Origin: Legionellaceae bacterium
GTDB taxonomy: Bacteria > Pseudomonadota > Gammaproteobacteria > UBA12402
Direction of reading: 5' to 3'
Length of the DNA stretch: 52,769 nt
Assembly (NCBI GenBank): GCA_002707695.1
Contig: PANR01000047.1
Span: 1 to 52,769, forward strand
Position numbers and translations under genes: made by a program. Each line of letters opens with the position of its first letter. The first letter of the stretch is position 1. The notes below the pieces were generated by a model. That model worked only from the letters and a program-made list of their open reading frames with translations, was not told the DNA's origin and did no database searches. Positions 15,938-23,543 of the stretch are shown piece by piece.

Positions 15938-17116
15938 TTAAAGTGTTTCAATTTTCAAGAGCATTTTGTGCAAATTTTTTGCATTAATGAGGTTCACGCC
16001 GTTCACTTGCTGCTCCTCACCATTGTAAACCAAGAAAGCAATAAGCGCCCTTTCACCGACGAGCTTTTGGAAATGTTTAATGCCTTTCAGCAAGGCAGGC
16101 GTAAAGGTGGACGCTGATTTAATCTCTATCGGAATAAGCTTGTCATGGGTTTTAAAAATGACATCCACTTCATTTTGGTTGCTATCCCGATAAAAATATA
16201 AGTTGGCTTCTTTGCCTTGGTTGAATCGATATTTGAGTAATTCAAGAATGACAAAGTTTTCAAACAATGCGCCCCTCGAACGATCTGATTGTATTTGTTG
16301 CCAAGATTCAAACGCGCATAAGCTGCTGGCGATACCAACATCGGTAAAATAAAGTTTGGGCGTTTTGATAATCCGCTTTCCAAAATTTTCAAAATAAGGT
16401 GGTAGTTGAAAGGTTAAATAGGAGGCGCTGAGTATTGACATCCAATTTCTAATAGTGCCTTGCGAAACACCCACATCATTGCTCAAGCTTTCTCGGTTAA
16501 TCACACTACTAATTCTGCCAGCACAAAGACGAATAAAGCCCCGAAACCGATCTAAATCCTTAATATTCACAAGTTGTCGGACATCTCTTTCCACATACGT
16601 TTTGAGATAATTGCGGGCATGTGTTTTAGGATCGAGATGGTGTTGGTAAATGGCGGGATAAAAACCGTTAAATAAATATTCATCAATTGAGAGTTCAACG
16701 TCATTATTGTTGAGTTCGGCCATTGATACTGGGAGCAATTCGAGTATTGCGGTTCGCCCAGCTAACGATTGTGAGATAGCTTCGGTGAGCTGTAGTTGAT
16801 GGCTGCCAGTTAATATGAATGAACCAGGCACGCGGTTTTCGTCCACAGCTGTCTGTATGTAAGAAAGCAATTCTGGTGATCGCTGAATTTCATCAAGTAT
16901 TACGCCCTTTTGTAAATCAAGCGAGTCAAAAAAGGCGCGAGGATCGGCCTCAATAAGTGCGCGAGTGTCTGGGTTTTCAAGATTGTAATAGGGTCGGTTG
17001 GGGTAAGCCGAGCGAGCCAGCGTTGTTTTGCCTGCCTGCCTGGGTCCCATGATGGTGACAATGGGATATTGCGACATGAGGCGCTCAAATTCTGTTTGGA
17101 TTGATCGCTGAAACAT
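15938..17116 (-). CDS. AAA_14-type ATPase with C-terminal DUF4143 (PD-(D/E)xK-like) domain, paralogue A
   Basis: Walker A GPRQAGKTT, Walker B VILDEIQR, C-terminal EVDVIF...IPIEIKS nuclease-like motif. Confidence 0.85.
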   Translation of the reverse strand: MFQRSIQTEFERLMSQYPIVTIMGPRQAGKTTLARSAYPNRPYYNLENPDTRALIEADPRAFFDSLDLQKGVILDEIQRSPELLSYIQTAVDENRVPGSFILTGSHQLQLTEAISQSLAGRTAILELLPVSMAELNNNDVELSIDEYLFNGFYPAIYQHHLDPKTHARNYLKTYVERDVRQLVNIKDLDRFRGFIRLCAGRISSVINRESLSNDVGVSQGTIRNWMSILSASYLTFQLPPYFENFGKRIIKTPKLYFTDVGIASSLCAFESWQQIQSDRSRGALFENFVILELLKYRFNQGKEANLYFYRDSNQNEVDVIFKTHDKLIPIEIKSASTFTPALLKGIKHFQKLVGERALIAFLVYNGEEQQVNGVNLINAKNLHKMLLKIETL

Positions 17117-17117
17117 T

Positions 17118-17222
17118 ATGTAAATCCTTATTTCAATTGCTGATTTTCATAAATTATACCCATTTTTGATAAAAAATCAAGATTTTTATATGTAAATATG
17201 CATTTCAATTGTGGATTTACAT
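17118..17222. promoter_or_regulatory. Two 33-bp imperfect palindromic sites in the divergent AAA-A/uvrD intergenic region
   Basis: ATGTAAATCCTTATTTCAATTGCTGATTTTCAT (17118-17150) and ATGTAAATATGCATTTCAATTGTGGATTTACAT (17190-17222). Outer arms are ATGTAAAT/ATTTACAT and the shared core is ATTTCAATTG. Centres are 72 bp apart. Confidence 0.5.
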
Positions 17223-17272
17223 AAAAATTTGTCCCCTTACCCCTCCTCGATGGCTATGTTACACTGCCGCGC

Positions 17273-20841: not shown

Positions 20842-21294
20842 ATGAACTACTGGCTCATGAAATCTGAACCGGAAACTTTCAGCATTGATGATCTTAAAAA
20901 AATGAAACGTGAGCACTGGGATGGTATTCGCAATTATCAAGCGCGCAACATGATGCGTGATGACATGAAAAAAGGTGACCTCGCCCTCTTCTATCATTCC
21001 AATACCACTCCGCCGGGTATTGTGGGCGTGATGGAAATTGTGAAAGAATCCTACCCTGACTTCACCGCGTTTGATCCCGAGAGCAAATACTATGATCCCA
21101 AAAGCACAGAAGATAAACCCCGCTGGTTCATGGTGGATGTGAAGTTTAAAGAAAAATTCAAACGCATGATCACCCTCTCTGATTTAAGAGCCAATGCGGC
21201 ACTTAAAGACATGTTAATTTTGCGCAAAGGCAATCGTTTGTCGATCACGCCAGTGACCAAAAAGCAGTGGGATGCAGTATTTAAAATGGTATAA
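20842..21294 (+). CDS. EVE (PUA-like) domain protein
   Basis: MNYWLMKSEPE.FSIDDL....WDGIRNYQARN.M.D.MK.GD.ALFYHSN is the canonical EVE N-terminus. GGAGG RBS. Confidence 0.85.
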   Translation: MNYWLMKSEPETFSIDDLKKMKREHWDGIRNYQARNMMRDDMKKGDLALFYHSNTTPPGIVGVMEIVKESYPDFTAFDPESKYYDPKSTEDKPRWFMVDVKFKEKFKRMITLSDLRANAALKDMLILRKGNRLSITPVTKKQWDAVFKMV

Positions 21295-21323
21295 ATTTCG
21301 TCATTATACCTCAGGTATTATAC

Positions 21324-22610
21324 TTAAGGTATATTGCTAGTTTTTTTTAAATTTAGCATCCATTTCCATGTTGGGAGTATATGAATGGTAAAATGTTCGT
21401 TTGTTATTGTCTCTGTTTCATCTTCTGTTAATAAATAAACGTTTTTTAATTTGTATTTTTCGGCGGCTTCAACGACCCCATTTAGCTCTCGCTCTTTGTT
21501 ACCATCATGGATATGTTGGCAGACCTGAATGGCGCTGGTAATGGTTTTGCCTTGTCTCGTAATAAAGTCGCATTCATATTTGTCACGATGAAAATAAATT
21601 TCCGTGTGCTCTTGCCTGGACAGTTCTAGAAAGACGCTGTTTTCTAGAAATCGACCATAATCGTCACTAAATCTAAAACCAATAGCTTGTGACAGACCAG
21701 AGTCAATAAAATAAGCTTTCTTAGATGAGGCGAGCTGTTTTTTTAATGAATAATCATAGCGGTTAATGAAAAAGCATAAAAAGCTATTGCTTAAATATTC
21801 ACAATATTCTGAAACAGTTGTTGTGCTTCCCAGACCTAACATCTTTTTAAGTTTGTTGTAACTGACATCTTTCCCAACGTTGCTTGATAGATAAAGAGAA
21901 AGTTCGCGCAGTGCTTTTTCATTGTTTATTTTGTATCTTGTAATGATGTCTCTATAAATAATGTTGTTATAGAGCGAGATAAGATATTCCTGGCTGTTAT
22001 TAGTAATATATTCAGGAAAACCACCTTGGGAGATGTATTCGTTGAATAATGTTTTGAAGTATACGTTTTCAGTGGTTGTTAAATCATCGCTTATTTCAAT
22101 GCTGTTCTTGCCAGTTTTTGACAAGACAAATTCTTTGAAAGAGAACGGATGCATGCGTAGAGTAACGTGTCTTCCCGTTAGGCGTGTTCCAAGTTCGCTG
22201 CTGAACATACTGGCGTTCGATCCAGTAATAAAAACTTTATTGCCCTGGTCGTGAAGTCGGCGAATGAACCGCTCCCAATCAGGGACGTTTTGTATTTCAT
22301 CAAAATAGAATGTCTGTTGCTCGCCATATAATTCGATGAAAACTTCGTATAAAATCTGAAAATCTTCAACTTTAAAACTAAGCAAACGTTCATCATCAAA
22401 ATTAAGGTAATAATTTTTCTCAGGAAGCTGCTCTCTTATTAGCTGAAGCTCGGTGGACTTTCCACATCGCCTAATTCCTGTAATGATGACAACCTGGTTG
22501 ATTTTAGTCAGTTCAAGAAGCTTGTTGTGCACGTCTCTTGGGATCGCACGTTTCTGAAAAACTTGTCTTTGTTGGTCAATGATGATTTGTCTTAGGCTGG
22601 ACTTGTCCAT
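21324..22610 (-). CDS. AAA_14-type ATPase with DUF4143 domain, paralogue B (nuclease-like motif degenerate)
   Basis: Walker A GIRRCGKST and Walker B FYFDEIQNV. C-terminal ECDFIT...SAIQVCQ stands where paralogues A and C have ExK (IEIK). Visibly more AT-rich than its neighbours. Confidence 0.85.
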   Translation of the reverse strand: MDKSSLRQIIIDQQRQVFQKRAIPRDVHNKLLELTKINQVVIITGIRRCGKSTELQLIREQLPEKNYYLNFDDERLLSFKVEDFQILYEVFIELYGEQQTFYFDEIQNVPDWERFIRRLHDQGNKVFITGSNASMFSSELGTRLTGRHVTLRMHPFSFKEFVLSKTGKNSIEISDDLTTTENVYFKTLFNEYISQGGFPEYITNNSQEYLISLYNNIIYRDIITRYKINNEKALRELSLYLSSNVGKDVSYNKLKKMLGLGSTTTVSEYCEYLSNSFLCFFINRYDYSLKKQLASSKKAYFIDSGLSQAIGFRFSDDYGRFLENSVFLELSRQEHTEIYFHRDKYECDFITRQGKTITSAIQVCQHIHDGNKERELNGVVEAAEKYKLKNVYLLTEDETETITNEHFTIHILPTWKWMLNLKKTSNIP

Positions 22611-22635
22611 ATTTCACGCTATTTGTTAACAAGGG

Positions 22636-22721
22636 TTTCCATTAGTAATGGAAAGTATAGCTAAAATATTTCCATTGTCAATGGAGGGTTTTAACGAAAA
22701 GTTTCCATTGACAATGGAAAC
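22636..22721. promoter_or_regulatory. Three phased palindromes TTTCCATT-N3-AATGGAAA upstream of AAA paralogue B
   Basis: TTTCCATTAGTAATGGAAA (22636-22654), TTTCCATTGTCAATGGAG (22669-22686), GTTTCCATTGACAATGGAAAC (22701-22721, perfect 21-mer). Centres are about 33 bp apart. Confidence 0.6.
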
Positions 22722-22727
22722 TATGGC

Positions 22728-23459
22728 CTAGCTGTTAATTAACGACGGTGGGATATGCTGATCACCGAAAACGTAGGTTAATCCGAGTTGGATTTGATTA
22801 GCGCTGAGTTCATCGTTGCCCACTTGATAGGTTGGGTTGTTGCCCCAGGGGCCCCAAGTTAATTTGCCCAGATCTTGGTGATAGGCGGCAAGATCAAACA
22901 ATAAGTTATCCGTTAATTTCACGTGCGTGCCTAAGCCTAGCTGCCAGGCTTCGCGGAAGGTGTTTTGCGAGTGCTCAGATTGTTGAGCATAAGTCATGTC
23001 AGTAGTATTCATGGCAGCGCCGATGCCGCCTGTGATAAATGGTATGACGGGGTAACCAAAGTTCCCATTCAGCGTGACGTTCGCAAATAGTGCTCGCGAG
23101 GTGATTGTGCTGCTAAGCTTGCTTGAGCCGCCAGTAAATAAAGGGCTGGTGTCATAATTAAAATCGAGCAGTTGTTGGTAGGATAAATCGAGTTGAACGG
23201 GTAATCGTTTAAATGCATATCCGAATTTAATAACGGCGCCGGGCTGATGGGTGTTGCTGGGCTTTTCATCCTTTAGGCTGCCCGCACCTTTTTGAAGGTT
23301 TAGTGTGCCCAGATCAATCGAAGCGTAGCCAAGCCCGCCGCCAAGATAGTAGCCGTTTGGGTAGAAGGCGTTTGGCAGGTAAAACTGCGCCGAGGCAGCG
23401 CCCGCCACCGTGAGGAGGCTGGCGCTCAAGGCTAGGGTGGATAATATCTTCGTCCTCAT
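22728..23459 (-). CDS. Outer-membrane beta-barrel protein (OmpA-TM/OmpW-like small porin family)
   Basis: Signal peptide MRTKILSTLALSASLLTVAGAASAQ. Alternating aromatic beta-strand pattern ending ...LGLTYVF. I set the start at Met20 of the track ORF. Confidence 0.75.
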   Translation of the reverse strand: MRTKILSTLALSASLLTVAGAASAQFYLPNAFYPNGYYLGGGLGYASIDLGTLNLQKGAGSLKDEKPSNTHQPGAVIKFGYAFKRLPVQLDLSYQQLLDFNYDTSPLFTGGSSKLSSTITSRALFANVTLNGNFGYPVIPFITGGIGAAMNTTDMTYAQQSEHSQNTFREAWQLGLGTHVKLTDNLLFDLAAYHQDLGKLTWGPWGNNPTYQVGNDELSANQIQLGLTYVFGDQHIPPSLINS

Positions 23460-23543
23460 TGTGTCTCTCGTTATATTTATATTGAGTCTAGCATGGATTA
23501 CACGCTTTGCAAGCATTTTCTTACAAAAATGAAGGAAATAGCC

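Follow-up and report, generated by a model that had tools for sequence, protein, structure and literature searches.

DUF4143 (COG1373) is a PD-(D/E)XK family of unknown function (PMC3424549). PDC-S01 (COG1373; PF13173 + PF13635) is the fourth most common defence candidate in prokaryotes, is enriched in archaea and awaits validation (PMC12988326). One study screened candidates for protection of E. coli B against T4, T5 or T7, and the PDC-S01 gene in it gave none (10.1101/2024.09.26.614923). On whether PDC-S01 has cognate DNA sites, contains a winged helix or regulates itself, the searchable literature yielded nothing. Here we consider a PDC-S01 gene, which we call paralogue B, and the palindromes upstream of it in a window of 52,769 nucleotides (the whole stretch of DNA that was analysed). 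Paralogue B has both Pfam domains and matches the PADLOC model PDLC04787. Its clade reads D...Q-V-C in place of the canonical motif D...E-x-K.

Three other systems resemble this locus. Archaeal Orc1/Cdc6 sits on origin recognition boxes (PDB 2qby, 1fnn). The likeness is an AAA+-lid-winged-helix layout (modelled in paralogue B) together with repeated dyad-symmetric sites. The differences are that paralogue B is only 12-15% identical, that its sites are on its own promoter rather than an origin, and that it has an extra C-terminal PD-(D/E)XK-like domain. AAA+ proteins of the TyrR/NtrC type bind as dimers to palindromic boxes about three turns apart and form hexamers, and TyrR represses promoters including its own. 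Here too an AAA+ domain is combined with a DNA-reading domain, phased palindromic boxes lie on a promoter, and self-control is probable. The AAA+ clade is a different one, however, the winged helix is in the middle of the protein whereas TyrR/NtrC proteins have a C-terminal HTH, and there is no sigma-54 promoter. The third group comprises restriction-modification systems with their C-protein operators, along with further defence or toxin cassettes that are autoregulated. These also have paired or multiple palindromic operators, which lie on the promoter of a mobile and potentially harmful gene and are carried along with it. In this group a small dedicated HTH protein binds the operators, whereas here the reader domain seems to be part of the large effector-like ATPase, and no separate regulator gene travels with it.

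We argue that the array may be a variation on the theme of autoregulatory phased operators read by an AAA+ protein. On the sequence comparisons given below, the three palindromes are likely to be a self-operator array that belongs to a single-gene PDC-S01 cassette, with ATPase dimers binding and repressing their own promoter.

The palindrome array

The features of the locus are given in Table 1.

Table 1. Coordinates of the array, its promoter and the surrounding genes. Positions are those of the window unless a relative is named.
Feature	Position	Strand	Remarks
Proximal palindrome TTTCCATT-AGT-AATGGAAA	22636-22654, centre 22645		exact match; spans the predicted +1 of the ATPase gene
Middle palindrome CCTCCATT-GAC-AATGGAAA (minus-strand reading)	22669-22687, centre 22678		match with 2 mismatches; -35 hexamer at its centre
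Distal palindrome AGTTTCCATTGACAATGGAAACT	22700-22722, centre 22711		perfect 23-mer; terminator-like hairpin; outer end of the cassette
Predicted sigma-70-type promoter, TTGACA (22681-22676), 16-nt spacer, TATACT (22659-22654)	22654-22681	minus	consensus match 11/12
AAA_14 + DUF4143 ATPase gene (paralogue B, PADLOC PDC-S01), 428 aa	21324-22610	minus	Pfam and PADLOC matches
OMP beta-barrel gene	22728-23516	minus	upstream of the ATPase gene; stop codon 5 nt before the distal palindrome
EVE-domain gene	20842-21294	plus	convergent with the ATPase gene
Presence/absence cassette, 1,433 bp	21290-22722	minus	terminator-like palindromes, ATPase gene and three-palindrome promoter
ATGG 4-bp direct repeats	21286-21289 and 22723-22726		flank the cassette
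Adjacent palindromes ATACCTCAGGTAT and ATACTTAAGGTAT	21306-21318 and 21320-21332		3' end of the ATPase gene; sole copies in the window
Paralogue A	15938-17116		23% identical to paralogue B
Region upstream of paralogue A	17117-17272		pair of ~35-bp palindromes
EVE-OMP slot in relatives	L214:3415-3490; L216:3915-3990; L215:1075-2480		

The word TTTCCATTNNNAATGGAAA, that is TTTCCATT-N3-AATGGAAA, is matched exactly by the proximal palindrome and again at 22702-22720 within the distal one. The middle copy has 2 mismatches to it and a AATGGAGG arm. The start-to-start spacings are 33 + 33 bp exactly. Shuffled windows gave a mean of 0.10 matches at up to 2 mismatches, and none of 100 shuffles reached 3. 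No further copy with up to 2 mismatches was found within the 52.8-kb window.

A preliminary description of this DNA had reported three copies of one palindrome with centres about 33 bp apart. This is confirmed, and the spacing is exact. Some of its other statements need adjusting. It took the distal copy for a perfect 21-mer. The copy is a perfect palindrome, but it extends to 23 bp. The palindromes were also said to fill the whole 117-bp gap (22611-22727) that separates the stop codon of the OMP gene from the start codon of the ATPase gene. The sites cover 87 bp, which is most of the gap but not the whole of it. Finally, the spacing was read as three helical turns with all sites on the same face. 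At 10.5 bp per turn 33 bp is 3.14 turns, so the palindromes are near the same helix face, but not exactly on it.

The sites and the promoter

By consensus match only, the three palindromes occupy the predicted minus-strand promoter of the AAA_14 + DUF4143 ATPase gene. The predicted promoter sits among the sites. Its -35 TTGACA is the centre of the middle palindrome, and its -10 falls between the middle and proximal palindromes. The proximal palindrome abuts the -10, so that on the minus strand its first base is the last base of that hexamer. The predicted start is near 22647. The earlier reading of the array as a repressor assembly fits with this, since the sites overlap both the -35 hexamer and the predicted start site.

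A TTGACA-like site centre with a -10 located 16-18 nt downstream is present in 13 of 52 arrays (consensus matches only). Loci of the Bacteroidota type have a TAnnTTTG box directly after the proximal site, which is likewise only a consensus match. Across lineages with differing promoter types the sites overlap -35/+1 or -33/-7 elements. This overlap with the core promoter in lineages that use different promoters fits promoter occlusion. It should be noted that in one subclade (L024, L031, L032, L036, L046, L057, L067) the half-site ends in GGAG(G/A), and the right arm of the proximal site is about 10-14 nt before the start codon. This arm could double as a Shine-Dalgarno sequence, in which case occupancy of the site or a hairpin might affect translation too.

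The distal palindrome is followed by TTTTCGTT and passed a terminator scan, with a 10-pair stem that has 3 G-C pairs and a folding energy of -10.7 kcal/mol. It probably doubles as the predicted terminator of the OMP transcript. The whole spacer folds better than its shuffles too (z = -5.4). One can imagine from this that all the palindromes are RNA or DNA hairpins that serve as OMP terminators, as structures in the 5'-UTR of the ATPase gene, or as both. We consider this very improbable. Mismatches between the arms are A/C in 58 cases vs G/T in 47, so there is no G-U bias on the sense strand, which argues against selection on RNA hairpins. The RNA-hairpin reading of the whole array was rejected on this ground. 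Hairpins also give no rationale for a spacing of exactly 33 bp. The -35 falls inside the middle site, which is itself upstream of the predicted start, and the stems are weak and rich in A-T pairs (-5.9 and -7.2 kcal/mol). Among homologues the array is kept irrespective of the gene that precedes it. Under the self-operator reading the distal copy by itself could still act as a terminator.

Arrays upstream of homologues

A metagenome scan gave 80 loci with homologues of ~47-54% identity. The samples include groundwater, sediment and gut, among others. The dereplicated set has 65 upstream regions including the window, and each was re-scanned with its own best palindrome. Nearly all of the homologue upstream regions hold palindromes of a shared design, x5-CATT-N3-AATG-x5. 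It is present in 61 of the 65 regions, and at least two copies are present in 53. Four regions have no copy of their own palindrome, 8 have one, 42 have two, 10 have three and one has four. Neighbouring copies are exactly 33 bp apart in 55 of 65 spacings, and in 52 of 65 loci two or more sites keep the exact 33-bp register. Strict palindromes have a density of 6.7 per kb in the 150 nt upstream of the gene vs 0.9 per kb in the rest of the loci. The array never departs from the promoter side in the homologue regions, and its distance to the start codon is constant.

The window's own word is used by 38 of the 65 regions, with a consensus of AAAnTTTCCATT-N3-AATGGAAAnnTTT. Its proximal 19-mer is also found upstream of homologues in L041, L044 and L213. 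L213 and L211 (61% identity) are the closest homologues that were compared as DNA. Each has two sites 33 bp apart, and the upstream site of L213 has the 19-mer along with TTGACA. Distant homologues on plasmids (28-40% identity; Sulfuricurvum, L. gasseri, Methanomethylovorans, Acinetobacter and others) have neither the window's word nor its spacing, and other repeats or palindromes are found upstream of them. Viral contigs are nearly devoid of these genes (2 loci).

The word was also sought by exact match of its 16 specified bases in one genome per species, which covered 185k genomes and 596 Gb and gave at least 120 matches. Among the matches listed, 6 are within 200 nt upstream of a homologous ATPase gene, and 93 of the 114 others are inside long open reading frames and have no in-register partner. 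The isolated single matches are about as many as chance would give for an AT-rich 16-mer in 596 Gb. As a test, matches to a single site are dominated by chance hits in coding sequence, and they are informative only with a second copy in register. Among the matches listed, 8 have a good second copy 23 or 32-33 bp away, and 6 of these 8 are beside a homologous ATPase gene. The exceptions among them are L137 and L181, the latter a coding repeat. In L137 the TTTCCATT-N3-AATGGAAA word occurs twice, also with spacing of the 23-bp type, and tblastn found no ATPase gene there. A distant subclade of the ATPase (39-49% identity; L112, L151 and L153, from Micrarchaeota and Bacteroidales) has the same word with a spacing of 23 bp, one turn less.

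These counts bear on another possibility. The sites could belong to a transcription factor that the host encodes elsewhere, or they could be a generic repeat of the REP or MITE kind. In its favour, exact single copies of the word do occur in many genomes. Many unrelated copies had been named beforehand as the result that would speak against the array. There is no other copy in the 52.8-kb window, and across genomes the matches listed are only isolated ones at about the chance number, mostly in coding sequence. The paired matches are a different matter, given that most of those listed are beside the ATPase gene. The same word also occurs beside homologues in a Micrarchaeota archaeon, Microgenomates (CPR), a deltaproteobacterium and Bacteroidales MAGs. 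A shared host regulator for homologues in archaea and such diverse bacteria is implausible. Of all the explanations treated here, a host factor or generic repeat is the one to which we give the least credence, and we regard it as extremely improbable.

The inserted cassette

The array and the ATPase gene sit between the EVE gene and the OMP gene, and related strains show this junction in other states. In the contigs of a related strain (run X4) the end of the OMP gene at 22723 is joined directly to the end of the EVE gene near 21290. In L214 (EVE 95% identical) and L216 (EVE 83%) the two genes abut, and their stop codons overlap by 4 nt (...AAAATGG followed by TCTAGC...). The slot is filled by a different ATPase of 368 aa (AAA; ATPase_2 / AAA_14-like) in L215 (EVE 89%). 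The contig P0002 (EVE 86%) has an 81%-identical PDC-S01 gene in the slot with the same synteny, and this is the closest homologue.

The empty site in related strains means that the array and the gene are a single 1.43-kb insert. The edge of the insert is exactly the outer edge of the distal 23-mer. At the other end the EVE gene takes its five terminal bases, TATAA, from the insert, and these finish the last codon and provide the stop codon. The overlapping stop codons are common to both empty alleles, so the empty EVE-OMP state is probably ancestral. From these comparisons the EVE-OMP junction is an insertion hotspot for ATPase cassettes. Where related cassettes are found in different contexts, DNA similarity begins 55-146 nt before the start codon and ends ~0-70 nt past the stop codon.

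A unit of this kind invites the idea that the palindromes are recombination or transposition sites, either terminal repeats or res-like subsites, and that the ATPase-nuclease is a mobility enzyme. In its favour are the 1,433-bp insert with ATGG direct repeats of 4 bp and its edge at the distal palindrome, the slot that is empty in two relatives and holds another ATPase cassette in a third, and the PD-(D/E)XK-like domain of the ATPase. We nevertheless find this very hard to believe. A transposon-like element should have a matching site at its other end, and there is none past the ATPase stop codon here or in 42 relatives. No site was enriched there, and own-word scores equalled those of the cross-controls (42 loci). 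The reading as terminal repeats is thus unsupported. It was also considered for the insert's left end, which is weakly half-site-like, and dropped since the 42 loci had no own-word enrichment downstream. The nuclease motif of the clade does not have the canonical E-x-K. The array always keeps to the promoter side and to one distance from the start codon, and a 4-bp repeat can arise by microhomology.

Several further observations concern this neighbourhood. The two adjacent palindromes at the 3' end of the ATPase gene have the same word as four copies just upstream of the unrelated ATPase in L215 (~2235-2305). Possible readings of these copies are an operator left as a relic, a terminator that works in both directions, or a signal of the hotspot. 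A PhdYeFM / YoeB toxin-antitoxin pair is located a few kb from the EVE gene in L214 (1142-1655) and L216 (358-871), and it is absent from that place in the window. L216 also has an amino-acid permease there, and the window has no permease at that position. These differences in toxin-antitoxin and permease genes imply that the neighbourhood between atpC and glmU is variable.

The ATPase

Paralogue B matches AAA_14 (PF13173, 1.6e-37) and DUF4143 (PF13635, 8.4e-23) in Pfam. The DUF4143 domain is C-terminal. Paralogue B matches the PADLOC model PDLC04787 (PDC-S01) at 8.9e-116. No NCBIfam model matches it, and no relative in the PDB was found by sequence or profile. The Walker motifs are intact, with GxxxxGKS and D104-E105 invariant in an alignment of 55 sequences.

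An AlphaFold model built with 55 homologues is confident, with a pLDDT of 91.6 and a pTM of 0.90. The modelled domains are an AAA+ core (1-170), a helical lid (179-226), a winged helix (~231-301) and an alpha/beta domain (304-413), which is the PD-(D/E)XK-like DUF4143 domain. The winged helix has helices at 231-243, 251-258 and 263-275 and strands at 279-284 and 297-301. The Foldseek matches to this model, with identities of 12-15%, include STAND proteins, RFC clamp-loader subunits, Orc1/Cdc6 and RuvB. The Orc1/Cdc6 matches are 2qby_B (E = 8e-6) and 1fnn_A (5.8e-5), at 12-14% identity. As modelled, the core of paralogue B has the AAA+-lid-winged-helix layout of Orc1, RFC and RuvB. The winged helix and this arrangement of domains make paralogue B a credible candidate for the protein that reads the sites, in line with the preliminary description.

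Since Orc1/Cdc6 reads origin boxes, it is worth stating that the palindromes were also considered as replication-origin boxes. This was rejected. The cumulative GC skew rises steadily through the window with no turn at 22.6 kb, and relatives do not have the 1.43-kb insert of which the sites are part.

The motif E-C-D348...Q362-V363-C replaces D...E-x-K in the nuclease domain. It is invariant or nearly so in the 55 homologues, and this clade does not have the catalytic D...(D/E)-x-K of PD-(D/E)XK enzymes. Thousands of PDC-S01 proteins may therefore carry the PD-(D/E)XK-like domain as a module that is non-catalytic or has an altered chemistry.

The fold leads to a further alternative. The array could be mainly a platform for assembly or loading, where the AAA+ oligomer docks in the manner of Orc1 and is stored or activated for a function that may be defence, and the overlap with the promoter would be secondary. 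There is something to be said for this. The strict 33-bp spacing is kept across ~50% protein divergence (23 bp in the distant subclade), which is tighter than simple repression needs. The ATPase has an Orc1/RFC/RuvB-like fold, the array is the physical end of the inserted cassette, and the altered motif D...Q-V-C is nonetheless conserved in the clade. On the other hand, the overlap with core promoter elements recurs in lineages with differing promoter types, which points to selection for occlusion, and no second array was found at the other end of the gene. We think it unlikely that a platform is the main role of these sites, and we prefer to regard them as operators of the ATPase gene.

The window also has a second ATPase, paralogue A, which keeps a canonical EVDV / IEIK motif. 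Upstream of it is its own different pair of palindromes, TATG(T/A)AAAT-N17-ATTTACATA, built around a CAATTG core. A TATAAT box lies between the two, and the start codon of paralogue A is inside one of them. The recognition-helix region reads GV-SQGTIRNW in paralogue A and GLGSTTTVSEY in paralogue B. Different recognition-helix regions together with different palindromes fit the idea of private operators for each paralogue.

Which protein reads the sites

No conserved neighbour gene was found to travel with the array in ~50 loci. The most recurrent neighbouring family occurs in 8 of these and consists of further ATPase paralogues, and the next occurs in 4. The half-site itself tracks well-supported clades of the protein (CCATT, CTATT, TATATT, GTGCATT and CTCATT). 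The preliminary description had tied the sites to an oligomeric AAA+ protein of this locus. That connection has gained from the comparison, in that the array recurs at ~50%-identical homologues in unrelated contexts and in both prokaryotic domains, its half-site co-varies with the clade of the protein, and no other gene accompanies it.

Residue 264 is at the start of the predicted recognition helix and changes with the half-site. S-x-T264-T-V goes with CCATT, N264 with TAT(A/G)TT in two separate clades, and S264 with CT(A/T)TT in four lineages. P-H/N in the 264 region goes with GCATT, and T-E (E264) with the gut CTCATT clade. Phylogeny confounds this correlation, which is suggestive only. When all protein columns were ranked by mutual information with half-site class the top columns were scattered, and the winged helix was not singled out.

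How the array might work

The gene-linked layout of the array across bacteria and archaea makes the palindromes likely to be the protein's own sites for binding and self-control. ATPase dimers would bind each palindrome through the winged helix, with the recognition helix at ~263-275. Neighbouring dimers 33 bp apart would be bridged through their AAA+ domains. Three dimers would amount to six subunits, and six is the usual number in an AAA+ ring. Such an assembly would block RNA polymerase, so the ATPase gene would be held low in a self-limited way. The distal site would terminate transcription from the OMP gene and thereby insulate the cassette.

Two points must be weighed against the finer details of this mechanism. 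A hexamer spread over three sites cannot hold for the family in general, because two sites are the rule among relatives. The spacing of 33 bp is not an integral number of helical turns either.

One can go further than this. PDC-S01 proteins might be sequence-specific machines similar to Orc1, with the array at the own gene as their native DNA partner. Dimers on sites 33 bp apart (23 bp in the sister clade) would then seed the growth of an oligomer that depends on ATP and follows the promoter as a wrap or spiral. Specificity could be reprogrammable through one or two residues of the recognition helix (264), and the whole would be a self-contained insertable cassette. More than a repressor, the oligomer on the promoter would represent an immune or addiction switch at rest. 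We offer this as a speculation that is unlikely in its full form.

Significance for the family

A conserved site that co-varies with the protein is the first concrete biochemical handle for the PDC-S01 / DUF4143 family. The handle consists of a defined fragment of 117 bp, together with predictions of which helix reads the sites and which residue sets the specificity. What this window contributes is a clean three-site case with the -35 inside a site, the tests of G-U bias and of neighbouring genes, the link to residue 264, and a series of filled and empty slots. The empty-site series at the EVE-OMP junction places the array within the inserted unit. A cassette with its own operators would explain how single-gene cassettes can be expressed safely when they land in unrelated hosts. 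If the 33-bp spacing does reflect an ATP-dependent oligomer on DNA, these proteins would be a new AAA+ reader of phased sites, alongside DnaA, Orc1 and TyrR/NtrC.
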